From Laetmonice hystrix (taxonomy: Eukaryota): a stretch of DNA of 64,000 bases. The DNA lies in NCBI GenBank assembly GCA_965235115.1, contig OZ249436.1, positions 4,714,001 to 4,778,000 on the forward strand. The letters run 5' to 3'. Shown piece by piece: positions 3,201-44,010 of this stretch. The notes under the pieces were generated by a model that made no database searches, was not told the origin of the DNA, and was given only the letters and a program-made list of their open reading frames with translations. A program made the translations under genes and the position numbers. Each line of letters starts with the position of its first letter. Positions within the stretch are counted from its first letter, which is position 1.

Positions 3201-3821
3201 GACCTCCTCTAGATCGGACGTTTGCCATGAACATATCATCTAATCTTTGTATTGGCTAGCCTTAGAATAGAGCAATCACAACACTGAGGGCTTCCTACAT
3301 GTATTGACTGGCCTTATACTCGAGCAAACACTACAGTGAGGCTTCCCTACATGTATTGGCCGGCCTCATACTCGAGCAAACACTACAGTGAGGGCTCCCA
3401 ACATGTACTGACTGGCCTCATACTCGAACAAACACTACAGTGAGGGCTCCCAACATGTACTGACTGGCCTCATACTCGAACAAACACTACAGTGAGGGCT
3501 CCCAACATGTACTGACTGGCCTCATACTCGAGCAAACACTACAGTGAGGGCTCCCAACATGTACTGACTGGCCTCATACTCGAACAAACACTACAGTGAG
3601 GGCTCCCAACATGTACTGACTGGCCTCATACTCGAGCAAACACTACAGTGAGGGCTCCCAACATGTACTGACTGGCCTCATACTCGAGCAAACACTACAG
3701 TGAGGGCTCCCAACATGTACTGACTGGCCTCATACTCGAGCAAACACTACAGTGAGGGCTCCCAACATGTACTGACTGGCCTCATACTCGAGCAAACACT
3801 ACAGTGAGGGCTCCCAACATG
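235..3821. repeat. Copy A of a ~3.6 kb local direct duplication
   Basis: From 235 (ttaaacaaaacaaactctcg) the sequence matches that from 3995 almost base for base. Duplicated ORF pairs include 296..571/4056..4331 and 2260..2493/6122..6355. The copy ends in the 52-bp array. Confidence 0.9.
3270..3821. repeat. 52-bp minisatellite, ~10 copies
   Basis: Unit ggcctcatactcgagcaaacactacagtgagggctcccaacatgtactgact; period 52 (3421 vs 3473). Confidence 0.95.
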
Positions 3822-5595
3822 TCTTACTCTTACTCTTAGGTGCGCCGTAGACACACTGCAAAATGATAATCTAACCCTGGAGTGGAGTCAGTTGAGTCAG
3901 TCAGGACCTGACCCCCCCCCCCCCCCCGACCCGCCATTGGAATAGGGATACTGGATAGATATGCCTATAGGCCCGCTCCTATTCATATTGGCTATTAAAC
4001 AAAACAAACTCTCGACTCCTTTATTTGGCCTACAAACGCGACCCGAGAGGTTGGGATGCAGGTGACGGGCGTCCCCCGGGACACAGTTGGGAGAACGCCG
4101 CGAAGGGCCACACCTGATCGACCCGGGTGGACGATAAAGGACCGATTCTTGCCTATGAAAATATATACTTTGACGCTCTTGTCGACAAGTACACCATCAG
4201 TCGTAGCTTCGAAAATACAAGTTACAATCAATGACTACATGTCGGCCTATACATACGCCGAATTATTTTTTAAACAGAGGAATAAAGAGTGGCAAGGACT
4301 GGGAGAACAATGCTACCTACCTACCACCTAACTAGTGCAGCTACCTCTCGCCGTTACACCACTTCCCGTTTAAAATGCGCGCGCAACATTCATGACGTCA
4401 TTGACGGGTATTTGACAAGTTTATGACGAGGGAAAAGTGTCAGAAACTCCCTAAATATCACGAAGTCTTTGACAACCGACAAACTTGTCACCGTTGAAGA
4501 TGCATTGACGAGGCTTTGACGAGGCTGGGTTTTCTGTGTAATTCCCTTGAAAAGACGTCATTTGGGAAACCCCTCGGCATAGGCATCGGAAGATATTAAA
4601 AGTTGGGGGGGGGGGGGCAAAGACCAAATCATAGGTCCCAAGTTCCAAGATTTGAAATGCTCTACAATGAAAACATGGACCCGTCAAAAATTAGACAAGT
4701 TTAGGCTTGTCAATCTGACAGTGTCGAAATCAACAAGTCAATTTGTCATATCCTTGTCAATAACAAGCTTGTCATAGCCTTGTCAATAGGCCTCTACTTG
4801 CTTGTCATATCCTTGTCAATAAATGTACAGGTCATTTCCAGGTCACAGGTCATGTTCCTCCGCCTGAGAACTGTTTCCCGTCGTTAGTTGATCCTCCTGA
4901 CTCTCACTGCAAGGTGCTTCCTGCCCTTCCATCCAGTGAGTCCTCCCGACCGTCACTGCCGTAATCCTGCTGGAGTCCTGCATGTCCTGATACAAGTACC
5001 AATAACTGTTAAAGTTATTAAAATAAGTAACGAAATGATTACCATGAACAAAGATTAACATGTTCAAAACAGGTTTGAAGAGTGAGATATTTAAATACTT
5101 TTAAAAAGCAGACTTAGCTATTACGTACCCCTCTCGACGGATCGACCTTGTGTCCGTTAAGTGCTGGGAATTGTCAAAATTTGTCATTGGGCTTGACTAG
5201 GCTAAACTCGTCATTTTGACAATCAGTTGACAACTCAAAGTTTTCAGCGTAGTCATGAGAGCGCCGAAGGCGTGAAGCCTCGAGCGGGGGGTCTGGGGGC
5301 CCTCTTCCAGAAAAATCTGAAAATTAAAGTGCCCCCTGACGGTCTGACCATCTCCTGCCACCTTTAGGCTGGAGGGGGGGGCAAAACTATATACTTCCTG
5401 ATAGTTCTAGTGTTGGCTGCCATGTCCACTGTGAAAAACCTACAACCGCGTCCGTAACTGTATCCGTGTCCGCATCCGGACCTGTGGACACGCAGCTGGG
5501 GATCAGACGAATGGCGACGTTAGTCCTCACCTCGAGCTAACATTTTCGTGATATGTGATTTCCGGACAGGAATGAGGGGAAATATCGCATTAGTT

Positions 5596-7554: not shown

Positions 7555-8059
7555 TTAGGTTTTTATTCTCCATGGACTTTGGCAGAGTTTGCCCTTCTAC
7601 TTTTTTATAAGGCCCTCCGTGTAAAGGGAAAAGTACAGTTTCTACATTGTCAGTATAGAAGGTTGCCTTATCTACTCAAAATGGGGGCTACTAATGAATG
7701 TGTTACTTAGATATAATGCTGACAGCATAGATATTACTTCTTTCCTTGTCTCATTGCCTTCAACGTAATCTCCCGTTCGCTGCCCACGCATAGCGTGTCA
7801 TAGATGCAAGGAATCGCAGACGGCAAACAGTGATTCCATTTACAGAGTTACTGATAACATGATAGTTTTGTCGGGCCCATTAAAAGATTTGGTATTATCA
7901 TAGTTATAGAAGGACCATTAAAAGATTAAATTGAGACAGAGACAACAGTACCGATATGAGAAAAGGTAGTGTGATAGTCATTAAATAAATACCATTAGGG
8001 GGATCACTACCTCTAGATCGGACGTTTACCATGAACATATCATCTAATCTTTGTATTGG

Positions 8060-9600
8060 CTAGCCTTAGAATGGAGCAATCACTACACTGAGGGCTTCCT
8101 ACATGTATTGACTGGCCTTATACTCGAGCAAACACTACAGTGAGGCTTCCCTACATGTATTGGCCGGCCTCATACTCGAGCAAACACTACAGTGAGGGCT
8201 CCCAACATGTACTGACTGGCCTTATACTCGAACAAACACTACAATGAGGGCTCCCAACATGTACTGACTGGCCTTATACTCGAGCAAACACTACAGTGAG
8301 TACTCTGTACTTGTATTGGCTGGCCTTTGACTGGAGCAAGCACTACAGTGAGGCCTCTCTACATGTATTAACTGGCCTTACACTCAAGCAAACACTACAG
8401 TGAGGGCTCTCTACATGTATTGACTGAACTTAGACTGAAGCAAACACTACAGTGAGGCCTCTCTACATGTATTAACTGGCCTTACACTCAAGCAAACACT
8501 ACAGTGAGGGCTCTCTACATGTATTGACTGAACTTAGACTGAAGCAAACACTACAGTGAGGCCTCTCTACATGTATTAACTGGCCTTACACTCAAGCAAA
8601 CACTACAGTGAGGGCTCCCGACATGTATTAACTGGCCTTACACTCAAGCAAACACTACAGTGAGGCCTCTCTACATGTATTAACTGGCCTTACACTCGAG
8701 CAAACACTACAGTGAGGGCTCTCTACATGTATTGACTGAACTTAGACTGAAGCAAACACTACAGTGAGGCCTCCCTACATGTATTAACTGGCCTTACACT
8801 CGAGCAAACACTACAGTGAGGGCTCCCTACATGTATTGACTGAGCTTAGACTGAAGCAAACACTACAGTGATGGCTCCCTACATGTATTGACCTGCCTCA
8901 GCCTGGAGCAAACACTACAGGAGGGCTCTCTACATGTATTGACTGAGCTTAGACTAAAGCAAAGACGACAGTGAGGGTTCACTACATGTATTGACTGGCC
9001 TTATACTCGACCATACACTACAGTGAGAGCTCCCTACATGTATTGAATGCCCTTGGGCTGGAGCAAGCACTACAGTGAGGGCTGCCCACATGGACTGACT
9101 GACCTTATACTCGAGCAAACACTACAGGGAGGGCTCACTACCTGTACTGACGGAGCTTAGACTGAAGCAAACACTACAGTGAGGTCTCCCTACATGTATT
9201 AACTGGCCTTACACTCGAGCAAACACTACAGTGAGGGCTCCCTACATGTATTGACTGAGCTTAGACTGAAACAAACACTACAGTGATGGCCCCCTACGTG
9301 TATTAACTGGCCTTACACTCGAGCAAACACTACAGTGAGGGATCCCTATATGTATTGACCTGCCTCAGCCTGGAGCAAACACTACAGGAGGGCTCTCTAC
9401 ATGTATTGACTGAGCTTAGACTAAAGCAAAGACGACAGTGAGGGTTCACTACATGTATTGAATGCCCTTGGGCTGGAGCAAACACTACAGTGAGGGCTCC
9501 TTACATGTACTTGCTGGCCTTATACTCTAGCAAACACTACAGTGAGGGTTCCCAACATGTACTGTCTGGCATTATACTCGAGCAAACACTACGGTGAGCT
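8060..9600. repeat. 52-bp minisatellite, ~29 diverged copies (same family as 3270-3821)
   Basis: Repeated core gcaaacactacagtgag...acatgta. Confidence 0.95.
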
Positions 9601-13380: not shown

Positions 13381-14040
13381 TGGCAACCTACAGTTGACAG
13401 ATGGCAACCTACAGTTGACAGATGGTAACCTACAGTTGACAGATGGTAACCTGCAGTTGGCAGATGGCAACCTACAGTTGGCAGATGGTAACCTGCAGTT
13501 GACAGATGGCAACCTACAGTTGACAGATGGTAACCTGCAGTTGGCAGATGGCAACCTACAGTTGGCAGATGGCAACCTACAGTTGGCAGATGGCAACCTA
13601 CAGTTGACAGATGGTGACCTGCAGTTGGCAGATGGTAACCTACAGTTGGCAGATGGTAACCTGCAGTTGACAGATGGCAACCTACAGTTGGCAGATGGTA
13701 ACCTGCAGTTGACAGATGGCAACCTACAGTTGACAGATGGTAACCTGCAGTTGGCAGATGGTAACCTGCAGTTGACAGATGGTAACCTACAGTTGGCAGA
13801 TGGCAACCTACAGTTGACAGATGGCAACCTACAGTTTGCAGATGGTAACCTACAGTTGGCAGATGGCAACCTACAGTTGGCAGATGGTAACCTACAGTTG
13901 ACAGATGGCAACCTACAGTTGACAGATGGCAACCTACAGTTGGCAGATGGTAACCTGTAGTTGGCAGATGGTAACCTGCAGTTGACAGATGGCAACCTAC
14001 AGTTGACAGATGGCAACCTACAGTTGGCAGATGGCAACCA
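13381..14040. repeat. 21-bp minisatellite, ~31 copies
   Basis: Unit tggcaacctacagttgacaga with variants. Confidence 0.95.
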
Positions 14041-14300
14041 CCAGCCTGTAGGTGATAACTTGCGACCTGCGCGTGCATGGTGGGTGCCCACAGGACCCCG
14101 GAAATTAGGGCTATTCAGATATGCGGGTTCTTTCATACGGCCAGCATATTGGACTACACCCGTACCAACCCCGCAGAATGCAAGCAGCGACAAGCCTTCC
14201 AGGGCAGAATGATGCCCTATAAAAGTCTGCTTTTAGAAACCTTAGGAGAACAGGGTAGTCGTTGTTCAGGAGACAAGTCGCCAAGGTTACTGACAATAGG

Positions 14301-17134
14301 ATGCCGCTGGAGTTGTACATTTGGCCGACGAGTCCACCGTGTAAGGCCACGCTAATGGTGTGTCTGGCGGCTGGAGTCGATGTCAAAGTCAAAATGGTGA
14401 ACTTGCCACAGGGCGAGCATCGACGGGAGACCTTCACTAAAGTAAGTCAGCCGTTAAAAGCCGACTTTCGGCGTGAGACCTCCACTAAAGTAAGTCAGCC
14501 GTTAAAGGCCGACTCTCGACTCGAGACCTCCACTAAAGTAAGTCAGCCGTTAAAGGCCGACTCTCGGCTCGAGACCTTCACTAAAGTAAGTCAGCCGTTA
14601 AAGGCCGACTCTCGGCTCGAGACCTTCACTAAAGTAAGTCAGCCGTTAAAGGCCGACTCTCGGCTCGAGACCTCCACTAAAGTAAGTCAGCCGTTAAAGG
14701 CCGACTCTCGGCTCGAGACCTTCACTAAAGTAAGTCAGCCGTTAAAGGCCGACTCTCGGCTCGAGACCTTCACTAAAGTAAGTCAGCCGTTAAAGGCCGA
14801 CTCTCGGCTCGAGACCTCCACTAAAGTAAGTCAGCCGTTAAAGGCCGACTCTCGGCTCGAGACCTTCACTAAAGTAAGTCAGCCGTTAAAGGCCGACTCT
14901 CGGCTCGAGACCTTCACTAAAGTAAGTCAGCCGTTAAAGGCCGACTCTCGGCTCGAGACCTTCACTAAAGTAAGTCAGCCGTTAAAAGCCGACTTTCGGC
15001 GTGAGACCTCCACTAAAGTAACAGGGCTGTCCAAAGTTGAGGCTGCTTGGTGCTCAACACGCGTAAATCCGCGCACCAGAATTACCAACCGAGTAACAGG
15101 GAAAAACAGTTTTCCAATAACCAGAAATACTTGGTCGCCCACGTGGGCAAGTAAGTGTCGCCCAACAGAACATTTGCTCACCTAACTACTTTTGCTTTTT
15201 TCAACAATCATTCTGGGCCCATTTTTTGTGTCAGCTGTTCTAAAAATTATTATTTTATAAACTGAGCTGCTTGACAAATGATCAGGATGTAAACAAAAAT
15301 AGGTACATCGCCCATGATAACTTAAACACCACGAAATTTGGTGGAAAGTAAAGATCCATGGCCCTGACCTTATCCCTAACCCCTAACCCCAGTCCCTACA
15401 CCTGCCAAAAACATATCCCTATCCTATCCATATCCCTATCCCTGACCTTAACCCTAACCCCTGCCCAAACATTTCGTGGTAAGTTATCATGGGGGAAGAC
15501 CCCAAAAATATGTGTACACAAGAACGGCTGTTAGGTTTAAGGAATAAGGGCGCATCTAAGACACCGAGAGACAGAGAGTAAGATACATAGGCCTATATTC
15601 ATTTTTAAGTTTTGTCGCTCACTTTTTTTCTTGTCGCATTTGTGTCACTGTTGTCGCTCCATGGCGCGACATAGCGACAAATGGACAGCCCTGAGTAAGT
15701 CAGCCGTTAAAGGCCGATTCTCGGCTGGAGACCTTCACTAAAGTAAGTCAGCCGTTAAAGGCCGACTTTGGGCGGGAGACCTTTACCAAAGTAAGTCAAC
15801 CGTTAAAGGCCGACTTTGGGCGGGAGACCTTTACTAAAGTAAGTCAGCCGTTAAAGGCCGACTCTCGGCGGGAGACCTCCACTAAAGTAAGTCAGCCGTT
15901 AAAGGCCGACCTTGGGCGGGAGACCTTCACTAAAGTAAGTCAGCAACTAAAGGCCGACTCTAAATTTAAGTCATTCCATGGACTAACTTCAGGGGACGTT
16001 CTTGGAAATGCCATTCGTACTCATCTATGCATAAACTCACTTCTGTACGCTATATCGTGGCAGTAATATAATTATATTTGCTCCGACTTTTCAGATGAAT
16101 AATTTCCAGTGTGTTCCAGTGCTTGACGACAATGGTGTTTTCATACACGAAAGGTGCAGCAGTGTAAATTGTTTTCACCAATACTGAAAGGCGAACTCTG
16201 CAGATTGCATTGCGTCTGTCAGATTGACAATGAAGCCAAACAAGTGTATGCATTGCACAGCGTAACAACTTTTCTTTTATGACAATTTTCGTCACCATCT
16301 AGTTTATGGAGCCAAGGATATTTTGCACGCTAATGTATGTACATGCATTATATGGTAGAATTTACATGAATTTTAGCGCCGTAATTAATTCTCTTTTTTC
16401 GAGCATTGTGTGGTTAAATCGTTAAATAACATGACGTTTACACAGTAATCGTTTCACTTTTACAAGCCGGTCGATCATGCGTTACGTGGTGGATAAATAC
16501 AGCCGGGTGGACAAGTTATATCCATCAGATCCTCACCAGAGGGCGCGCGTGAATGCCGTCTTAGATTACGACTGTGGCACTGTATCTCCCACGGTCCAAT
16601 CATACGTGGTCTGTAGCTTTAGGCACACCAGCTGGGTTTATAAGTAGATCTATACAAAATTAGTTTGCAAATATTACTTTTGTATTTTGGGCTTACGTGT
16701 ATTGTGACTAAATATCATTCAGTACAATTGATTTCTCGTCTTTCCTATGGATTGATTTTGAATTGTATTCATTTTGTTTCTGCGAAATATCCTGTGAAAC
16801 ATTTTGTCCTGACTGAGACTGACTGCCTTGCCCTCGCCAGTGCCCGCAGGTATTCCAACACCAAGAAGAGGACCCCGTGTGGAGAGGACGGTTGTTACGG
16901 GTACTCGGTCTCCTGGAGTCCTCGCCGTCCTACTGGCAGGAGGACTACCTTACTGGACCTTCAGTCACTATCGCTGATCTCTCCTTGACTGCCACTCTCT
17001 CCTTCCTCGAGGTGATCCACTTCGATATCTCTCGCTTCCCACAGCTACAAACCTGGCACGGACGAATACGCAATCTGCCCTACTACTCCAGAGTACACGA
17101 AACGTGCCAAGGTTTTATGGTGAACAAGTCTTAA
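14301..17134 (+). CDS. Cytosolic glutathione S-transferase, theta/delta-like (catalytic Ser), 211 aa; exons 14301-14441, 16095-16153, 16467-16608, 16841-17134
   Basis: Spliced translation MPLELYIWPTSPPCKA...NLPQGEHRRETFTK|MNNFQCVPVLDDNGVFIHES|RSIMRYVVDKY...LYPSDPHQRARVNAVLDYD...|...YLTGPSVTIADLSL...FPQLQTWHGRI. It has Ser11-PPC, the cis-Pro VP, ES and the TIAD N-cap. All introns are GT-AG and phase-consistent; AATAAA near 17555. Confidence 0.92.
15022..15693. mobile_element. Non-autonomous DNA transposon with 12-bp TIRs and 5-bp TSD (hAT5-like)
   Basis: TIR cagggctgtcca / tggacagccctg; TSD agtaa at 15017-15021 and 15694-15698. The satellite resumes in register after it. Confidence 0.85.
15302..15502. 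mobile_element. Nested ~200-bp MITE with 8-bp TSD and CCCTAA-like interior
   Basis: Imperfect TIRs ggtacatcgcccatgataact / agttatcatgggggaagaccc with subterminal accacgaaat/atttcgtggt; caaaaata on both flanks. Confidence 0.65.
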
Positions 17135-17649
17135 TTACGGACAAGTAATTAAGGAGCCAATTTAATAGTCTCCGCAAATAGGTGAATACTGTATCGTGAT
17201 AATAATCACCTGCGGTGAGATTAGATCTTGTGTGGCCATGAATCAGCGACAGTACCTTTTGGTGGGCTTCAGTAAATAGGCCTGCTGGCGATGATAATGC
17301 TCTAATCTAAAAAAAAGTTAGATACAATCACCTTATGAATCCATTTAGAACAGTTTTGCCATCAGAGTATGGGTCGCCACTGGCACAGCTTATCCTCAAC
17401 TTCATTAAGCTAACTCCATACTCATATACTGAGTAGGTCTCATCCTGTCACCGGCTCACCACTACTGACCCGCAAACGTGGAAAGGATGTACTTTTTCCA
17501 AGTTCGCGCCTTCTTTCGCTATCCTGGATTCTGGATGTCTGTGGTAAACACTGAATAAAAAAGGGCAGGTATAGAGCTGGTGGTAAACAGAATGGATGAC
17601 ACGGAGGATAGGATCACAGTAAACAAGTACCAGAAAGTATTATAAAACT

Positions 17650-22819: not shown

Positions 22820-23945
22820 AGCTGTTCCAGGCCACATTCACGTCCCAACACCAACCACTGTCCCAGCCGACTCCACACCGTGTGCACACTGACCTCCTGG
22901 CACCGGGTTCTCCACCATGGTCACTCCTCCACACTCGGACTCCGCTGTTCTAGGCCACAGTCACGTTCCAACACCAACCACTGTCCCAACCGACTCCACA
23001 CCGTGTGGACACTGGCCTCCTGGCACCGGGTTCTCCACCATGGTCACTCCTCCACACTCGGACTCCGCTGTTCTAGGCCACAGTCACGTCCCAACACCAA
23101 TCACTGTCCCAACCGACTCCACACCGTGTGCACACTGACCTCCTGGCACCGGGTTCTCCACCATGGTCACTCCTCCACACTCGGACTCCGCTGTTCTAGG
23201 CCACAGTCACGTCCCAACACCAATCACTGTCCCAACCGACTCCACACCGACACCGTGTCCACACTGGCCTCCTGGCACCGGGTTCTCCACCATGGTCACT
23301 CCTCCAGACTCGGACTCCGCTGTTCTAGGCCACAGTCACGTCCCAACACCAACCACTGTCCCAACCGACTCCACACCGACACCGTGTCCACACTGGCCTC
23401 CTGGCACCGGGTTCTCCACCATGGTCACTCCTCCAGACTCGGACTCCGCTGTTCTAGGCCACAGTCACGTCCCAACACCAACCACTGTCCCAACCGACTC
23501 CACACCGACACCGTGTCCACACTGGCCTCCTGGCACCGGGTTCTCCACCATGGTCACTCCTCCAGACTCGGACTCCGCTGTTCCAGGCCACAGTCACGTC
23601 CCAACACCAATCACTGTCCCAACCGACTCCACACCGTGTGCACACTGACCTCCTGGCACCGGGTTCTCCACCATGGTCACTCCTCCACACTCGGACTCCG
23701 CTGTTCCAGGCCACAGTCACGTCCTAACACCAACCACTGTCCCAACCGACTCCACACCGTGTGCACACTGGCCTCCTGGCACCGGGTTCTCCACCATGGT
23801 CACTCCTCCAGACTCGGACTCCGCTGTTCCAGGCCACAGTCACGTCCCAACACCAATCACTGTCCCAACCGACTCCACACCGTGTGCACACTGGCCTCCT
23901 GGCACCGGGTTCTCCACCATGGTCACTCCTCCACACTCGGACTCT
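22820..23945. repeat. 123/129-bp minisatellite, ~9 copies, overlapping the end of the 24124-23840 exon
   Basis: Repeated ggcaccgggttctccaccatggtcactcctcca...; some units carry an extra 6 bp (gacacc). Confidence 0.95.
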
Positions 23946-30693: not shown

Positions 30694-33600
30694 ATGGCGT
30701 GGATGAGGGTTGGGGATCAAAGCCCGACTGAAGTTCATCCTGATTTACAAAGGGAACGCAAAACTGCCACGTTCTGTCCTGAGCTACTGACAAATCTACT
30801 GGATGGAGGGAAAGACCACACCGATCGTCGACGGCAAGTGGGTGCGTGTAGGCCTACACACTACTGGCCAGTTTTGGAGTGCAGCCCTTGGAACTGAGGC
30901 GTAATGTAGGACAAATATAATTCGGGCAGTTTTCTCAATCCATCTTCTTCGGGCAATGACCATTTATAGCGCCTGCCCTCAACGTTTTAGGTTCTCCATA
31001 ATCATACAAACAAAAATAAAACAATACCAACAAGAATTTTTTAAAATTATGAAGAATAATCATAAAAGATTTACAATGCTTTATTATGACAAACTGGCAG
31101 TTAAACTTAAAGTTACCTCATTGCCAACTGTAGGCCTATAATATATTAAATGAAAATAGCCTACCTCTAGAGTTCATTGAAATTACTAATTAATATAAAT
31201 GTGTGTTTATTTATCCACAGTTAGCACCCTTTTCCAGAACGCTGCCTTTGACCCCAAAGATTCCCATTTCCTGTCACGTTGGGACTCCTATGGCCGTGCG
31301 CTTCAAAAGGGTACGAAACTTCTGTCTGTAGGAATCCAACACGGCTGGAACAGGGACGATTTCAACCATGCTGTCAGGTAACAGGAAGGAAAAGTTTGAC
31401 AGTCACAGAGTGTCCGTGTATGACCGACCCATGACGTGCATTGGCTGTCAGAACCCATCATAACTATAGATTGAGATGGGGAGAAAAAAAAACCAGCCGA
31501 ACTGATTTTTTTATGAAAAAGCACATTTTGGTTACATCTACAGAGCGGTAACTATACACCATAAATTTAAAAGAGACAGATGTGCTAATTGTAGTAGGGT
31601 GGGGGCCGGCTCCCTAGAAAATTTCTTCAGACATATAGGCCCGAACTGGCTCAGAATGAGAGGAGGCTCCAGCATTCATGAGAGTGTTGGTCAACAAAGT
31701 GTTTGAATGGCCTTATATACTCCGTACAACATCAGGATAATATATTGGAAATTTCTTTATATTCCCTCACTGATTCCCAACAAGATCTTCTAAGATATTA
31801 GGAAGTAATCTCTAACTTTCACTGATAGGTTGTGTGCTTTTCCTCACGATGGAAATTTATTTGCAGTTTACTATTTTATTTCAGTGAGGGCGATTCATTA
31901 ATTAAAACATGTGTTGTTCCTTTAGCTAACCTTAACACCTAGAGTCATGGGATTCTCCTGATAGCAAAAGCTAATTCAATGCTCCTCACTGTAGATCCAT
32001 TCGGTTTGATGTCGGAATGGGCGTACATGTTATAATGTTTCTCCCTGCCATCGAACGTCTGGCAACGGACGAACAGAAGGCCGAGTGGCTCCCCCTAGCG
32101 ATGAGTCTGAAAATGATCGGTACCTACGCTCAAACTGAACTCGGACATGGTAAGTTACAGAGGTATAACTCCCTAGCCGGGTCATGGTAGTTTTGGGGAA
32201 TGTGACATTTTCAGTCCTAAATGGTTAAACGTATTGAACCGAGCATGGATGAGCCTGATGAGGTAGTCCTTTATATAATATGAAAAAGTAAACCTTAGGC
32301 CTAGCTGCAACAGATGAGTTGGGAGAAACAGCCGTGTTCAACTGAATATTAATAATGCCAGTTTATTTATGGTTTTCTTGTCTTTACTTAAATAGGGACT
32401 AACCTCCGGGAACTTCAAACCACGGCCGAGTACAACCCAACGACACAGGAGTTTGTGTTAAACACACCATTTCCAACAGGAATGAAATGGTGGCCAGGAG
32501 GGTGTGAGTTTAAGTTTGTAAGAGAAGAGAATATCAATACTTCAGGTGGCTAGAATTCAACAAGAATACTGTCCGCATATAGATCTATACATGCAGCACC
32601 TGAGAGAAAGGGAGAACAGTACTACATGTAGTTTTACGTATGCACAACCTTATATTTAATGTAGAATAATGTCATTTTTTTAAAATCATTATTAGCAAGG
32701 GTTATTAACTGTATTAAATGATTGGTGTAATTTCTTTATTGTTTTTAAAGTGGGGAAATCGTCAAACCATGTATTGTTACTGGCCCAGCTGATTGTGAAG
32801 GGGAAAAGATGTGGTATGCAGGCCTTCCTAGTCCCAATACGAAGTATGGAAACACACAAACCACTACCGGGTATGTAACTTCATACCCACTGAACCCAAA
32901 CAGGTATGTAACTTCATACACACTGAACCCAGACAGGTATGTAACTTCATACCCACTGAACCCAGACAGGTATGTAACTTCATACCCACTGAACCCAGAC
33001 AGGTATGTAACTTCATACCCACTGAACCCAGACAGGTATGTAACATCATACCCACTGAACCCAGACAGGTATGTAACATGACACCCACTGAACCCAGACA
33101 GGTATGTAACTTCATACCCACTGAACCCAGACAGGTATGTAACTTCATACCCACTGAACCCAGACAGGTATGTAACTTCATACCCACTGAACCCAGACAG
33201 GTATGTAACATCATACCCACTGAACCCAGACAGGTATGTAACATCATACCCACTGAACCCAGACAGGTATGTAACTTCATACCCACTGAACCCAGATCTT
33301 CATACCCACCCAACCCAGACAGGTATGTAACTTCATACCCACTGAACCCAGACAGGTATGTAACTTCATACCCACTGAACCCAGACAGGTATGTAACTTC
33401 ATACCCACTGAACCCAGACAGGTATGTAACTTCATACCCACTGAACCCAGACAGGTATGTAACTTCATACCCACTGAACCCAGACAGGTATGTAACTTCA
33501 TACTCACTGAACCCAGACAGGTATGTAACTTCATACCCACTGAACCAAGACAGGTATGTAACTTCATACCCACTGAACCCAGACAGGTATGTAACATCAC

Positions 33601-36600
33601 TCACACTGAACCCAGACAGGTATGTAACATCACTCCCACTGAACCCAGACAGGTATGTAACTTCATACCCACTGAACCCAGACAGGTATGTAACTTCATA
33701 CCCACTGAACCCAGACAGGTATGTAACATCACTCACACTGAACCCAGACAGGTATGTAACATCATACCCACTGAACCCAGACAGGTATGTAACTTCATAC
33801 CCACTGAACCCAAACAGGTATGTAACTTCATACCCACTGAACCCAGACAGGTATGTAACATCACACCCACTGAACCCAGACAGGTATGTAACATCACACC
33901 CACTGAACCCAGACAGGTATGTAACATCACTCACACTGAACCCAGACAGGTATGTAACTTCATACCCACTGAACCCAGACAGGTATGTAACATCACTCAC
34001 ACTGAACCCAGACAGGTATGTAACATCACTCACACTGAACCCAGACAGGTATGTAACTTCATACCCACTGAACCCAGACAGGTATGTAACTTCATACCCA
34101 CTGAACCCAGACAGGTATGTAACTTCATACCCACTGAACCCAGACAGGTATGTAACTTCATACTCACTGAACCCAGAGAGGTATGTAACATCACACCCAC
34201 TGAACCCAGACAGGTATGTAACTTCATACTCACTGAACCCAGACAGGTATGTAACTTCATACTCACTGAACCCAGACAGGTATGTAACATCACACCCACT
34301 GAACCCAGACAGGTATGTAACTTCATACCCACTGAACCCAGACAGGTATGTAACATCACACCCACTGAACCCAGACAGGTATGTAACTTCATACCCACTG
34401 AACCCAGACAGGTATGTAACTTCATACCCACTGAACCCAGACAGGTATGTAACTTCATACCCACTGAACCCAGACAGGTATGTAACATCATACCCACTGA
34501 ACCCAGACAGGTATGTAACTTCATACCCACTGAACCCAGACAGGTATGTAACATCACACCCACTGAACCCAGACAGGTATGTAACATCACACCCACTGAA
34601 CCCAGACAGGTATGTAACATCATACCCACTGAACCCAGACAGGTATGTAACATCACACCCACTAAAACCCAGACAGGTATGTAACTTCATACCCACTGAA
34701 CCCAGACAGGTATGTAACTTCATACCCACTGAACCCAGACAGGTATGTAACTTCATACCCACTGAACCTGACAGGTATGTAACTTCATACCCACTGAACC
34801 CAGACAGGTATGTAACTTCATACCCACCCAACCCAGACAGGTATGTAACATCACACCAACTGAACCCAGACAGGTATGTAACATCACACCCACTGAACCC
34901 AGACAGGTATGTAACTTCATACCCACTGAACCCAGACAGGTATGTAACATCACTCCCGCTGAACCCAGACAGGTATGTAACTTCATACCCACTGAACCCA
35001 GACAGGTATGTAACTTCATACCCACTGAACCCAGACAGGTATGTAACATCACTCCCGCTGAACCCAGACAGGTATGTAACTTCATACCCACTGAACCCAG
35101 ACAGGTATGTAACATCACACCAACTGAACCCAGACAGGTATGTAACATCACACCAACTGAACCCAGACAGGTATGTAACATCACACCAACTGAACCCAGA
35201 CAGGTATGTAACTTCATACCCACTGAACCCAGACAGGTATGTAACTTCATACCCACTGAACCCAGACAGGTATGTAACTTCATACCCACTGAACCCAGAC
35301 AGGTATGTAACTTCATGCCCACTGAACCCAGACAGGTATGTAACTTCATACCCACTGAACCCAGACAGGTATGTAACTTCACTCCCACTGAACCCAGATC
35401 TTCATACCCACCCAACCCAGACAGGTATGTAACTTCATACCCACTGAACACAGACAGGTATGTAACTTCATACCCACTGAACCCAGACAGGTATGTAACA
35501 TCATACCCACTTAACCTGGCAGGTATGTAACATCACACCCACTGAACCCAGACAGGTATGTAACTTCATACCCACTGAACCCAGACAGGTATGTAACTTC
35601 ATACCCACTGAACCCAGACAGGTATGTAACATCACACCCACTGAACCCAGACAGGTATGTAACATCACTCACACTGAACCCAGACAGGTATGTAACATCA
35701 CACCCACTGAACCCAGACAGGTATGTAACATCACTCACACTGAACCCAGACAGGTATGTAACATCACACCCACTGAACCCAGACAGGTATGTAACATCAT
35801 ACCCACTGAACCCAGACAGGTATGTAACATCACACCCACTGAACCCAGACAGGTATGTAACATCACACCCACTGAACCCAGACAGGTATGTAACATCACA
35901 CCCACTGAACCCAGACAGGTATGTAACATCATACCCACTGAACCCAGACAGGTATGTAACATCACACCCACTGAACCCAGACAGGTATGTAACATCATAC
36001 CCACTGAACCCAGACAGGTATGTAACATCATACCCACTGAACCCAGACAGGTATGTAACATCACACCCACTGAACCCAGACAGGTATGTAACATCACTCA
36101 CACTGAACCCAGACAGGTATGTAACATCACACCCACTGAACCCAGACAGGTATGTAACATCACTCACACTGAACCCAGACAGGTATGTAACATCACACCC
36201 ACTGAACCCAGACAGGTATGTAACATCACTCACACTGAACCCAGACAGGTATGTAACATCACACCCACTGAACCCAGACAGGTATGTAACATCACACCCA
36301 CTGAACCCAGACAGGTATGTAACATCACTCACACTGAACCCAGACAGGTATGTAACTTCATACCCACTGAACCCAGACAGGTATGTAACATCATACCCAC
36401 TGAACCCAGGCAGGTATGTAACATCATACCCACTGAACCCAGACAGGTATGTAACTTCATACCCACTGAACCCAGACAGGTATGTAACTTCACTCCCACT
36501 GAACCCAGATCTTCATACCCACCCAACCCAGACAGGTATGTAACTTCATACCCACTGAACCCAGACAGGTATGTAACATCATACCCACTGAACCCAGACA

Positions 36601-39600
36601 GGTATGTAACTTCATACCCACTGAACCCAGACAGGTATGTAACTTCATACCCACTGAACCCAAACAGGTATGTAACATCATACCCACTGAACCCAGACAG
36701 GTATGTAACTTCATACCCACTGAACCCAGACAGGTATGTAACTTCATACCCACTGAACCCAGACAGGTATGTAACATCATACCCACTTAACCTGGCAGGT
36801 ATGTAACTTCAAACGCACCCAGTAAACCTTCCGAATATGTTACATAATACCTCAGAAAAACAACAATGCCTTCATCACTGACACTTCCTTCGCCAATTGA
36901 TTCCTAATTTCACAGTTAGGTATATATTATGTGTGATGGTAATGTTAACTGTTACTTTTACTGTAACTGTTACTGTTAAAACTGAATGTTTCATGTCTAA
37001 AGGAGTTGAGGTTGGTGAGATCGGCCCGAGACTTGGCCTGAATACTGCTGACAATGGTTTCCTGATACTAAGAGACGTACACATTCCCAGAACAAACATG
37101 CTCATGAAATACAATCAGGTAGGTATGGATCGACCTGGTGTGCCTGGTGTGATCCCTCCACGACAAGGGCATTCCATAAACTGGGAGTTGACTGGTTTTA
37201 ATTTGTAAAAGAAATTTAACCGGTAAAATGTGCTGGTAGGAGCACATTATATGTAGGAGCTGGTATATAGAGTGTCAATGTTGTACATGAGACCTGTACA
37301 TATGATGTCTGTTAACCTATGTCTGTCTAAAGACCAGAGATTGAGTTTGAACAAGTAACATGTGTTGATCCCTCGTTTCGATCTATAGGTAACCGAGGAG
37401 GGGGAGTTTACGACTGGAAGCGAGGGTGGCCGCGCCACCTATAATACCATGGTGATGGTGAGGACTGCTATTGTTGACCACTGCTTCATGTTTGTGTCAC
37501 ACGCTACTACCATAGCAACACGCTACAGCGCCGTGTGGCGGCAGTCCGAACTAAAACCGGGGTCAGTCTCACAGCCTCACATTTATGGGCTGGAGAAAAT
37601 ACGTTACCATAGTGATAGAATGATTCCTTCAACTTGTTCACGTCCGTTTCATAATATCACTACAAGATTCTTTAGAAAAACTTAAGCAGTCCAATTGAAT
37701 GATAGTGTAGGCATATGTCAGAGGTATTTCTAAATTCTATTAAATGCTGCACTTATGTCAGCCTATGACATCTCGGCAGATATTCTATGATATGTCAATA
37801 TGTACGACATGCCACCATAGACCATGTTTCAACATCTGTTGCCATTTCTTCGATATTTCAGAGATGGGGAGGTCCAGGTGCTCGACTTCCAGACTCAACA
37901 GTACAAACTATTCCCAAACATAGCACTCGGGTACAGTTTTTATTACGCCCAGCGTGATATCGCGGCCACATACGAACGGATGTATAAAACTGAACTCAGT
38001 AAGGGCAACTTCACCAACGTACCTGAGGTAGGTCAGGAATTCCTGGGGGGAAGGGGGGAATTGGATGATTTGTCTGGTGGTCTGACCCAGAGATGATTTA
38101 TCTGGCGTCTGACCTCGAGTTGTAATAATTCTCCCTCCCCCACACACCCACAGATGCACAGTCAGAGTTGCTGTCTGAAGGCATACGCCACCGACCTGAC
38201 CACCGAGGCCGTGGACGTGTGTCGCAGAGCGTGTGGAGGACACGGATACCTGCTTTCCTCCGGGCTGGCTGACCTCCTCCAGGACTGCCTGGCTGGGGTC
38301 ACGTATGAGGGAGAGAATACAGTGCTCTACCTCCAGACCGCCAGGTATGGGGGCAAGGGTGGGGTAGGGGTGGGTACGGACAACTGGGGGTGGGGTATGG
38401 ACCAAGGGATGAGTGGAGGGGGTATTTATAGTTACCTCATCACGGTAATCCTGTCTTGTAAATTAGGACCCAACCTATTTTCTAAAGATGAAATGTCAAA
38501 TATGGAATACAATTCTTCGGGTGGGTCCATAATTAGGAATTGATTTTACCTCTATATGTATTGGAGAGATGAGCTGAGATAGTATAGGGGCAGGAGTGAG
38601 CTAATTGTCTGACCAACACATCACCACCATGCTGTCTCAGTTCTCACCGACCCTTCCTCCATACCAGATACCTGGTAAAGGCTTATACTAGTACTGGAGG
38701 AGAGCTGACTGGGACGAGTGCCTACCTAAGAGGACACCTCCAGGCTGCTCCAGTACATACAGCTACCGACTGTCGAAACTTCCACACCCTCACCACCGCA
38801 TTCAGGACACGGGCTCTGTAGTAGGTCCCGGCGATTTCAAATACATACCATAGGCGTCCTCGGGGGAGGAGGGGGGGACGTAATGAAGTTGAGTTGCAAG
38901 TCTTTCGTAATTCCTCTTCTGGTACCCGTAGCTCTGTGCTGACCACAGGTGCCTCCTGAAGTCGAATTCAACCCACCGTTTGGAAACCCTGGGGACACCT
39001 ATGTATACCTCAGCACTTCATGTTAGCTAGAGTTTCTTTGCCTTTGATGCAATAAATCTAACCTCACGAGTACTCAAGAAGGAAATGACCGTGACCGTGA
39101 CCGTTGATCCCCTCTATATTGAGATGTAAATAAAATCTCCTCCTCTATCGTCTAGCATGGTTCGTATTGCTGCAAACAACCTACAGAGGGCGCTAGCGTC
39201 TGGCAAGCCCCAACACGTGGCATGGAACGAGAACTCGGTCGACCTTGTCACAGCAGCTAAGGTATACTGTGCTAAGATTGTCATCCTTCAAGGTTACCCA
39301 GGTCATATCTGCTCGATACTTGGTAAAACTATTTAAACACACTCATTGAATATAGAGATATCTATACCCAGTGGCGGATCCAGAGGTCGGGGGTGTACGG
39401 TTGCAACCCCCTCCCCCCTAAAGTAATTTTTCTTTCTTTGCGCAAAACCTGAAAACTTTTTTGGGGAATAACTTTTTTTCGGTATTCCTTCCAGAGGGGC
39501 CTGCAGGAAACCGTGTTCGGGATTGGTGTGAATTAAAAGTAGAAACAGATGAAATGCTCCCATTTCTATAAAAAAAAAAAACTACTTCTAACTAGAAGGA

Positions 39601-41352
39601 GGTGGTTACTTCTATATTGCCCCGGTCCTTCTCAATCCTGCCCTACATGTTCAGGAGCCACGACCTTTGTGTTGCCAGGCCCACGTAGACAGTTACGTGG
39701 CAGTGACCTTCATGGAGAACGTCAAGCAGACGACAGTCTCTGACCCAGTCATCCGTGACGTCCTCCTCACCCTGGCCACGCTCCACGCCCTCCATAGGAT
39801 TGTGGTCGGCGCAGCCCAATTCCTCGAGGTAACCATGACGACAACCCTAATCCAGGAATTAGATACACTCGATATGAGATTTTTGTGGATCGGTAAGTTC
39901 TCGGGCTAAAGATAGTGGTCGTAGAACGCCTTCTCTTGGCAGTAGGCCCCCCTACACCTCGTGAGAAGGGTAACATACATGATTTCATGTTTATAGAGTG
40001 GCGCCATCTCACGGGAACAGTTGGAACTAGTACGTCGCCAGGAGGTGGCGCTGCTGCCAAAGATCAGGTGAGTCTGCATCATGTGGTCCTCACGTGCCAT
40101 TTGTTTGTCAATACATTTGTATTTATATGGAACTTTGTCCCAGTAAATGGCCTGATATCCAAGCTGGACTTGAAAAAGTAGGCGCTCGGTAAATATGATG
40201 CAATAACACCTATTCAGTTTTCTTCGAATTCCACTGAAACCATTGAACGCGTGGAAACTCCCAGCTGTCAAAATTTATCAGACCTACATCAATGTATCCA
40301 AGACTCACTAATAAGTCGAACATTAATTATTACAGGCATTACGATATTTTAATCCTAATTAAGAAATCTTTTCCATTATCTCTGTATATTAAGTTTATAC
40401 ATGTATTTCCCCCCCGTGAGGCCGAACGCCGTAGCTCTGGTAGATGCCTTTGATCTACATGATTTCTCGTTGAATTCGACTTTGGGGAGTTACGATGGCC
40501 AGTGCTACACTCGACTTTACGAACACGCTAAACGGAACCCACTCAACCAACAGCAGGTAACACTCAGCTTTCTGAATTGACCACGTTGGATTTGGATTTC
40601 TTTGGAGTCCCCCCCCCCCCTCCCACCCACCGGACCCCTTCAAAAATTCTGGATCCGCCCCTGGTAGCAGCCGCTTTTTATAGGGCGCCGTGCATAAATT
40701 ATGTAACGCGATTCTGACCAAAATCTGACCCCACCCCGCCCCACCCCACCCCCGTAATGCTTTCAATGGAGCTTTATAATAGACCCTAACAAGTACATAC
40801 ACCAGCACCCCACCCACACCCCCACCCCCACCCCCACCCACACCCCCACCCACACCCACACCCACACCCACACCCCCACCTCCACCCACACCCACACCCC
40901 ACCACCACCACCACCACCACCACCCCACCACCACCCCCACCCCCCACCCGCCACCGCCAGCGTTAAGGAGCGTTACGTCATTTATGGACGGCCCCTAAAG
41001 ACTCCACTAAGGAATGACATGGATAATAAAAAGTACAGTATGTCATTGTCAGGAACCAGTTCAGATAATATCTCCTGCCCATACTACCGACAGAGGGACT
41101 AAAATTGCCATGTTGATCCAAGATGCCATTTTCAAATGGCGGTGTTAAATTTTAGGGGATATTTATGGTAGGCCTAACCCCGAACCTTCTCAATCTGTGT
41201 TTTACTGGCAGGGAACAAACATCTACGTTTGACTACCCTTGGTAACTTGTCTAATAGATTATAAATCCATGTCTTTGTCATTTCAGGTCCATCCTGGCTA
41301 CTTCAAGTACATTAAACCAATACAGGAAGCCGCATTCTCAGCAAAACTCTGA
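30694..41352 (+). CDS. ACOX1: Peroxisomal acyl-CoA oxidase (ACOX1-like), 671 aa, 15 exons: 30694-30841, 31221-31377, 31995-32149, 32396-32503, 32751-32870, 37003-37118, 37389-37561, 37862-38027, 38154-38344, 38668-38820, 39156-39261, 39679-39828, 39997-40067, 40421-40556, 41287-41352
   Basis: Motifs [65 protein letters not shown] (catalytic Glu), [12 protein letters not shown] and C-terminal AKL (PTS1). Exons sum to 2016 nt with consistent phases and an ACCATGG start. Orthology to ACOX1 is not tested. Confidence 0.95.
32871..36810 (+). repeat. 33-bp minisatellite, ~119 copies, filling ACOX intron 5
   Basis: Unit GTATGTaacttcatacccactgaacccagaCAG; the first unit begins at the intron's first base (32871). 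Confidence 0.97.
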
Positions 41353-41414: not shown

Positions 41415-42120
41415 TTACTACCATCACAATAATATTACGAGACAGACAGCAATTGTTCAAACCATACATCGTCAATATCTATAACAGTGTCGAACTACTT
41501 TACTACCATCATGTCACAATAAGATTACAAGACGGACAGCAATTGTTCAAACCATACATCGTCAATATCTATAACAGTGTCGAACTACTTTACTACCATC
41601 ATGTCACAATAATATTACGAGACGGACAGCAATTGCTCAAACCATACATCGTCAATATCTATAACAGTGTCGAACTACTTTACTACCATCATGTCACAAT
41701 AAGATTACAAGACGGACAGCAATTGTTCAAACCATACATCGTCAATATCTATAACATTGTCGAACTACTTTACTACCATCATGTCACAATAAGATTACGA
41801 GACGGACAGCAATTGTTCAAACCATACATCGTCAATATCTATAACATTGTCGAACTACTTTACTACCATCATGTCACAATAAGATTACGAGACGGACAGC
41901 AATTGTTCAAACCATACATCGTCAATATCTATAACAGTGTCGAACTACTTTACTACCATCATGTCACAATAATATTACGAGACGGACAGCAATTGCTCAA
42001 ACCATACATCGTCAATATCTATAACAGTGTCGAACTACTTTACTACCATCATGTCACAATAAGATTACGAGACGGACAGCAATTGCTCAAACCATACATC
42101 GTCAATATCTATAACGGTGT
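41415..42120. repeat. 90-bp minisatellite, ~8 copies, in the probable ACOX 3' UTR
   Basis: Repeated tttactaccatcatgtcacaataagattacgagacggacagcaattgttcaaaccatacatcgtcaatatctataacagtgtcgaactac; AATAAA at ~42252. Confidence 0.93.
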
Positions 42121-44010
42121 CAAACTTTCTGTGATATCAGCTCTGATTGTTAAAGGTTTTTGATTAATTAATAATTATTAATTAGTAGACCTCTAGCCAT
42201 TGTTCCACTCTTATCTTCTTGTCCATAATATGATTTTTTTCTTCGAAAAGAAATAAATGTTTTAGGACAGCGAGGCTCAATACTTGGGGGGGGGGGGAGG
42301 TTGCTATAGGCTTTTTTTTCTAGACTAATCCACTCTGGATTAGAGTCTCTCGATTTTCATTTGGCGCGAGTTCAGCCTTGACATCACCATCCGTCCAGTG
42401 CTGCCACCTTGCGTCCAACACCAGTACTTGCAGCCAGTGTGGCCGACCGGTTACCCCATCCCCCCGTCCCCCGGATCAGCCTCAGTACGTGCGTGTCATA
42501 AACTCTGGGTTCCCAGTGAAGGGTTCAGATATATGCCTCTATCTAGAGGTCCAGCCCAATGTTTTAACCCAACCCTCCGGCCTGAGATACCCTGACACAG
42601 CCGAAACGATACTATATATTGATAAGGAGTAACTGGAAATGTTCGTATGTATCCTCAATGGGAATGACCAGTTTCAGATGTCTGACAATCTCGGCCCCGA
42701 GGGGGCGGGGTGTTTGGGATGATCAGGACCTTTGTTTGCTTTCCAAACCCTGTGTGTCAATCCATGCGTATAGGTGGAAGGAAAATTATTTATATGATCA
42801 AATATAAACTGCACTGTCGTTTGGAAATGTTGAACACTTTTTGCCTCGCCTTATTGTATCATTCACAATACATTTGGGAGGGTTGGTAAACGAGTGAAGA
42901 CTATAATGCCTAATGAACTACAGGTTCCAGTTATATGAATGGGATATTAATTGACAAAGATTAATGGATTTCGCCGACTTCCTCTTAATTCCCTTGTTGT
43001 CCTTATTGACCTCGCCCACGCCCACTCGCCGGGGTTCTCCGGGGCCTTGGGTATCTACCTGGAGTACCCTACTTGGGGTACGCTAGCGACCTGGTGGGGG
43101 GTGTACCCAGTTCGCGAGAGGGGTATAGAAGAGGGATCGAGGTTGTATCCGTTCTAGGTCCCCGCTGTTCCTGTTGAGTTCCTTAGATAAGGGAACATTT
43201 TCTGACATTCAGGGAGGTTCTACAATAATCATAATTGTAACATTAACTAGAAGCAGCAAAAAGCATGTATTTCAAACGCTGAAATTTCGCCCTATTTTAC
43301 GGGTGTCTTAGATCTATCCCACCTCGCTTACATTAATTACCCCTACCCACACTCCCCAGCTACCCATAGTTTCAACCCATTTCCTGCCGCGACGATGTAC
43401 CCTTTTACCTAACCCCCTCCGCCCACTTCCCACCCCAGATAGGCACGCCAATTTTATGTACCCCAAGAGAAACCCCCACCCCCGAACCCTGACATGCACG
43501 CAAGTATCTTCACACGCGTGTTGACGTGCGTTCTATCTTTGTCCTTGCGATGTGTGTGTGTGGTGTTAGTGAACATGAAGTTAGCCGTGCGTGCTGTTTA
43601 GGGTTTTAAGGGTTGCCGCACTCCGTACCAGGGCTCAATTAGGCATCATTACATGGTTACAGACCCATACATGCGCTCGCACAGTGTAGTTGAGCCCCAG
43701 CCAAATCTTAAACGCAATTAGCAAAGATGTCTGTGAATGGGCGCGTTACTGTCTGATGCTGCTTCCTGTTTGATGTGGCACATACTACAGTCGCACTAAT
43801 TGACCCGTTGATGACAATGGATAAGTTTATAGACCTATTCTAATAATGGATCACACGCTACAATAATGATTATTATTGGAAGCACCTGCGCCTCGTTTAT
43901 CATGTATATCTTTGCTTTTTCTTCTATCTTCTCGATCTAACATTTCATGTATCTTCTCGATCTAACATTTTCAATCAGTTCTATAGTTTTCATATTTCAA
44001 ATCCGTCTTA

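Follow-up and report, generated by a model that had tools for sequence, protein, structure and literature searches.

A donor-spanning 48-bp minisatellite at the first exon of a putative delta-like glutathione S-transferase gene in Laetmonice hystrix

Introduction

Minisatellites that copy a splice donor are known from several genes. In human F7, the upstream donor of a 37-bp VNTR in intron 7 is the only one used, although splicing at copy five or six would not introduce a premature stop, according to the excerpted text of Borensztajn et al. 2006 (PMC1557585). The same excerpt reports two extra donors in use at 6-16 (IFI6) intron 2 and CBS intron 13, and use of the first donor only in LMNB2 and PDGF (PMC1557585). 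Extracts on CBS place its array at the exon 13-intron 13 boundary (PMC2630376, PMC5188458), with a unit, c.1444_1467+7, that comprises 24 exon and 7 intron nt (PMC2630376). In the lancelet genes Adh3, BflGb6, BflGb9, TnC, and PGBD5, boundary-duplicating 'mirages' leave splicing undisturbed and show concerted evolution within a cluster, with divergent units at its edges, in the portions of the reports cited here (PMC3087553, PMC3902484).

The locus described here is a four-exon glutathione S-transferase (GST) gene of Laetmonice hystrix, at 14301-17134 of the window, by which we mean the whole 64,000-nt stretch analyzed (contig OZ249436.1 of assembly GCA_965235115.1; G000:C1:4714001-4778000 in our coordinates), within a 627-Mb genome. 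Anopheles delta GST (aggst1-alpha / adgst1AS1) joins a shared 5' exon to alternative 3' exons, giving full-length enzymes. Among donor arrays, the 12-bp unit of 6-16 gives in-frame isoforms, and in vitro work has found the downstream site preferred among duplicated donors. An initial annotation of the window read 14426..15961 as one in-frame ladder of duplicate donors behind GST exon 1, from which the gene would either make a series of isoforms or strictly select the first donor.

Results

The GST gene

By similarity, the gene is classed as a delta-like cytosolic GST. Its normal splice product would be ~211 aa long; the spliced frame is intact, and GST_N and GST_C domains, the N-terminal Ser, the cis-Pro, and the ESR motif are all present. 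The gene is laid out as follows:

14218..14225, + strand: TATA-like box 5' of the gene, by motif match alone
14301..14441, + strand: exon 1 coding part from the ATG at 14301, 47 aa, delta-class-like N-terminal domain (GST_N and structure match)
14442..14447, + strand: authentic donor GTAAGT (AAA/GTAAGT), phase 0 (paralogue and homologue alignment)
16095..16153, + strand: exon 2, which holds cis-Pro55
16467..16608, + strand: exon 3, with an uncertain 3' end (16593, 16605, or 16608, all of which keep the frame)
16841..17134, + strand: exon 4 with the stop, GST_C match; start at 16841 or 16850

Ser10 of exon 1 occupies the expected catalytic position. The exon's match to GST_N (E 0.0016) falls slightly short of the cut-off, and its best natural-protein structure matches are delta GSTs (E 1.7e-6), with GST1-3 and GST1-4 chains matching equally well in the structure search. 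The protein is divergent: in a representative search that gave 150 matches, the best natural relative was a 103-aa fragment (57% over exon 4), and none of 188 candidates was a longer homologue including exon 4, which is weak evidence. At 16095-16118 the protein reads N-N-F before the cis-Pro motif, where most homologues have N-P-x; given this difference, the enzyme may be atypical.

Exon 1 of a paralogue (G000:C1:8611516) ends at the same codon as exon 1 here, which supports 14442 as the ancestral donor. The paralogue has an apparent GC donor (AAG/GCAAGT) at the same intron position and no array beside it. The acceptor of exon 2 lies at 16094/16095, and intron 1 is now 1653 nt long. Upstream of the gene, a 21-bp x31 array at 13381-14039 ends ~180 nt 5' of the TATA-like box and could affect the GST promoter.

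Anatomy and origin of the array

The array consists of ~18 head-to-tail units in two blocks and is itself far beyond chance:

14421..15021, + strand: 48-bp minisatellite, left block, with 11 intact in-phase donors and one damaged (TRF, unit comparison)
15694..15961, + strand: 48-bp minisatellite, right block, with six donors at 15695-15935 in phase 2 (TRF, phase computation)
15935..16094, + strand: putative remnant of an ancestral 160-nt intron 1, from unit structure

With a period of 48, TRF counted 12.4 copies at 14427-15021 (96% matches) and 5.6 copies at 15694-15961 (90% matches). Intact GTAAGT copies recur every 48 nt from 14490 to 14970 in the left block, all 11 in phase 0, while the twelfth donor copy (15018) is damaged to GTAACA; the last unit of the right block continues into unique intron.

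The initial annotation had correctly placed a 48-bp unit across the exon 1-intron boundary, but its division into 15 exon and 33 intron nt does not hold, since in all 17 units the similarity to the end of exon 1 extends over its last 21 nt (2-4 mismatches each). These matches favor a division into ~21 exon and ~27 intron nt. The proposed phase is borne out in the left block, where the copies from 14490 to 15018 share phase 0 and each 48-nt step corresponds to 16 aa. The idea of a single in-frame ladder reaching 15961 survives for this block and fails for the right one: a miniature transposon (MITE) lies between the two, and the six donors past it are in phase 2 beyond a stop.

The unit is confined to a single locus, with 8 of 8 genome matches falling here (2 of 2 candidates scored), and the array originated in place. 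In three DNA-like contig sets, all from one sample of one study that is possibly the source of the assembly, array words reach ~7-10x the flank depth (231-511 versus 29-56, compared over 15890-17330); the array is therefore no assembly artefact. One array word in the contigs has no counterpart in the window, implying a unit variant of the second haplotype, though contigs cannot count units. Together with contig ends, this word suggests that the other haplotype also has the array.

The units are thus tandem, the first spans the exon-intron boundary, and the repeat was born at its locus, as in splice-junction-spanning minisatellites. On structural grounds, the array is a 'mirage' minisatellite, a further case of an already known kind, the F7-type VNTR.

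The transposon that splits the array

The two blocks are one array cut by a transposon, which carries a smaller element of its own:

15022..15693, no strand assigned: non-autonomous DNA transposon (MITE), 672 bp, with 12-bp terminal inverted repeats and a 5-bp target duplication
15183..15185, + strand: first in-frame stop, a TAA within the MITE
15302..15502, no strand assigned: second element, 201 bp, lying within the MITE and flanked by an 8-bp target duplication

The target duplication of the MITE (15017-15021 and 15694-15698) lies inside a donor copy. Twenty loci examined yielded 13 distinct copies of the MITE with both ends, 11 of which have an exact 5-bp duplication; one of the other two has a mismatch in its 5 bp, and the last has a duplication of 6 bp. 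The empty site of the 201-bp element is visible in three other copies. By its target length alone, the MITE may be termed hAT5-like: hAT5 is defined by a 5-bp TSD, and TSDs of 2-5 bp combined with CA..TG termini occur in the CMCT clade, according to the excerpted classification (PMC12730594). The family appears recently active, its best matches being 92-98% identical among the best 40 of 2605 candidates.

The MITE brings both a stop and a frame shift, so the right-block donors are unable to yield a GST isoform.

Open frame and constraint

The GST frame runs open from exon 1 through the 12 left units to the TAA at 15183-15185, which agrees with the annotated open frame and with its description of the unit as stop-free and a multiple of 3. 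These properties are at chance level, a one-in-three coincidence. With periods of 20-80, the reconstructed junction allows 2257 duplications across it; 739 have a length divisible by 3, and 720 (32% of all 2257) lack a stop as well, a result that partly reflects the stop-free start of this intron. Across the window, 25 tallied arrays cover 34% of its length, and 11 of the 25 have a period divisible by 3. Two of the window's arrays, 123-bp x9 (22821-23944) and 90-bp x7.8 (41424-42126), each have one stop-free + strand frame, with no gene linked to them.

Variation among the units was compared with expectation block by block. The translatable left block has 3 synonymous and 3 non-synonymous changes (2.2 synonymous expected, P=0.40), and the right block 4 and 5 (P=0.40). 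Taken together, the two blocks show 8 synonymous changes, where 4.6 are expected, and 5 non-synonymous ones (P=0.049, conditioned on base type); no stop arose in the pooled units, for which the probability was 0.67. A naive binomial value for the pooled units (P=0.004, 24% expectation) was discarded, as it takes no account of transition bias. The pooled synonymous excess is borderline and the sole result that leans toward coding use, and it vanishes within each block and includes untranslatable units.

The exon 1 junction lies just before the cis-Pro loop, as annotated, with the cis-Pro 8 residues on. Of 26 proline-bearing rows, the window GST among them, 24 have 8 residues between the junction (K47) and the proline, and the other two have 6 and 10; none of the aligned homologues has a repeat-type insertion at the junction (maximum spacing 10 residues). 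The insertion point is predicted to be a surface region near the G-site. In 5 of the 12 left units, the first two among them, a Phe is replaced by Ser; 25 of 27 ungapped alignment rows have F or Y at this position. In exon 4, five of six heterozygous differences are synonymous (P=0.019 versus the transition expectation); the normal protein thus looks constrained, which fits a working enzyme.

Intronic polyadenylation that would yield a 294-aa read-through frame was considered and rejected, there being no AATAAA or ATTAAA from 14400 to 17554. In that 294-aa frame, Pfam matches beyond GST_N were all below the cut-offs.

Donor-spanning arrays elsewhere in the genome

An ACOX1-like gene (exons ~30695 to 40570) carries a 33-bp array from its donor at 32871, extending over 32870-36818 with ~118-120 copies. 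Each of 118 donor copies reads Gly-Met-stop (TAA) in the coding frame, and most have CAG before GTATGT, which also supplies an AG and makes a stronger donor than the real one. The unit is locus-unique but for two weak 72% matches.

Beyond the window, donors were sampled in conserved gene families, in which rows share genes, and a donor was counted as plausible at a score of at least 1 on a donor-scoring matrix, judged on sequence. For sample A, Pfam searches of the genome supplied 59 exon matches in myosin and ALDH genes, and 52 of these had a plausible donor. For sample B, 200 short regions were planned and 157 used, 141 with a plausible donor; the 200 planned were made up of 120 kinesin rows out of 140 (the remaining 20 stop where the domain does and were dropped), 60 of 142 kinase rows hand-picked to avoid domain ends, intronless copies, and tandem copies, 20 further myosin rows, and none of 20 AMP-binding rows. 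The donor is reiterated downstream in five of these 193 sampled donors (2.6%, 95% interval 0.8-5.9%), a figure that misses long or decayed units and leaves out one weak further array found at a lower threshold. The five are:

G000:C12:11022056-11022529 and G000:C1:15946394-15946661: myosin donor array, 34 bp x13.9, and ALDH donor array, 134 bp x2
G000:C3:20998699-20999244: kinesin motor exon donor array, 45 bp x12.1, in frame and stop-free throughout, 15 aa per unit
G000:C20:12503546-12504170 and G000:C1 ~17203810-17203950: the other two kinesin donor arrays, one of 51 bp x2.7 with a stop in the first unit, the other of 58-66 bp x ~9 with stops present

Four of the five are frame-breaking or stop-containing and one, the 45-bp kinesin array, is open; this array lies within the motor domain, and its units differ by 11 non-synonymous and 4 synonymous variants. 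The GST array thus has many counterparts in the genome, an open one among them.

Arrays spanning acceptors, judged by eye, also occur in myosin genes, at G000:C18:5566017-5566382 (57/107-bp) and G000:C20:22392033-22392362 (59-bp). Within the window, two related 52-bp arrays (3270-3822 and 8052-9598) have similar left flanks and were probably carried by one dispersed element.

Discussion

Donor choice

Our analysis makes it probable that the first donor dominates and that the array is inert intron. The array arose by a local tandem duplication, which probably copied the last ~21 nt of exon 1 together with the first ~27 nt of a 160-nt intron, and ordinary minisatellite turnover expanded it to ~18 units. 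The MITE later entered one donor copy and split the array, after which the two blocks drifted apart. As in human F7 and the lancelet mirages, the spliceosome would splice from 14442, the donor farthest upstream; at a first exon, cap-linked U1 recruitment and co-transcriptional order would favor this site. The gene would then yield the normal GST, with the remaining donors as silent pseudo-donors. Of the two outcomes offered by the initial annotation, both evidence and literature strongly favor strict selection of the first donor over an isoform ladder, which the sequence makes no more than possible. The ladder is disfavored by the chance-level frame and by the frame-breaking or stop-carrying arrays of like build in myosin, kinesin, ALDH, and ACOX genes.

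The same neutral origin could instead be accompanied by a minor leak, in which a minor share of transcripts is spliced from 14490 or 14538 and gains 16 or 32 aa, the products being unselected and probably inactive; we regard this as possible but doubtful. All copies carry the 9-mer of the true donor, whose score on the donor-scoring matrix is 5.8 versus a sample median of 5.6, and in-frame leak products escape nonsense-mediated decay, which would leave their mRNA stable. The excerpted literature has examples on either side: human 6-16 and CBS splice at two pseudo-donors besides the authentic one, whereas F7, LMNB2, and PDGF splice from the first donor only (PMC1557585). Furthermore, the ACOX gene tolerates 118 copies with a stop in each, many of them stronger CAG/GT donors, which argues against leakage.

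Alternatively, the later donors may be used deliberately, 16-aa modules beside the glutathione-binding site tuning activity, specificity, or dosage, with repeat number as a heritable dial. The frame that stays open over 12 of 12 left units, the borderline pooled synonymous excess, and an insertion point predicted at the surface near the G-site are consistent with such a function. We nonetheless consider it very unlikely: no aligned homologue has an insertion of this kind, the conserved aromatic is Ser in 5 of 12 units with the first two among them, and a third of the array was put out of frame by the transposon, its donors being kept nevertheless. The equally open kinesin array (15 aa x12), whose variants are non-synonymous by 11 to 4, also speaks against it.

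That the intron-proximal last donor wins, giving most transcripts the stop at 15183 and making the gene a null or strong hypomorph, is extremely unlikely: in vitro work does show the downstream site to be preferred, early duplicated-donor studies gave opposite results in the excerpted account (PMC1557585), and the GST protein is a divergent one, its best relative reaching 57% over exon 4, but the spliced frame is intact, the GST motifs are kept, five of six heterozygous differences in exon 4 are synonymous, both haplotypes seem to have the array, and the same rule would knock out the ACOX, myosin, and kinesin genes.

Dominance of the first donor thus remains our preferred reading, and under it the single GST locus is a tidy example of a known oddity whose value is as a test case. 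Because the donors of its left block do not differ and all keep the frame, nonsense-mediated decay would not hide which of them the RNA was spliced from. With arrays at ~2.6% of sampled donors, a single long-read RNA set could set the rule that the most upstream donor wins against proximity models over many natural cases, in-frame arrays being compared with frame-breaking ones. In the most far-reaching reading, in-phase donors used at a real rate would produce a repeat-number-dependent ladder of GST subunits whose 16-aa inserts lie next to the glutathione site and which heterodimerise with or dilute the normal enzyme, and array length would thereby tune detoxification; in-frame arrays across the genome, such as those of GST and kinesin, would keep supplying new protein segments. 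We think this very unlikely.

Comparison with known systems

The Anopheles delta GST makes its splice choice near the corresponding exon 1 boundary, but in the present gene duplication affects the donor alone, and no sign of alternative 3' exons was observed. As described in the excerpts, 6-16 and CBS resemble the GST array in having donor-spanning repeats of 15-25 copies and are the known cases of a short ladder; the CBS unit, unlike the GST unit, is no multiple of 3. The lancelet mirages are likewise locus-specific, minisatellite-like boundary duplications in a marine invertebrate, while the portions of their accounts considered here do not include a GST host, full frame preservation, or interruption by a MITE. 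The human F7 repeat, in the text cited, has 37-bp units with 4 exon nt at an internal exon, in 5-9 copies of which some are in frame, and its donor usage was measured. The GST array has 48-bp units with ~21 exon nt at a first exon, all left-block copies in frame, and a transposon inside, and is known from sequence alone. In both arrays, as far as the F7 excerpt goes, the first unit spans the exon-intron boundary and identical donor copies follow the authentic one.
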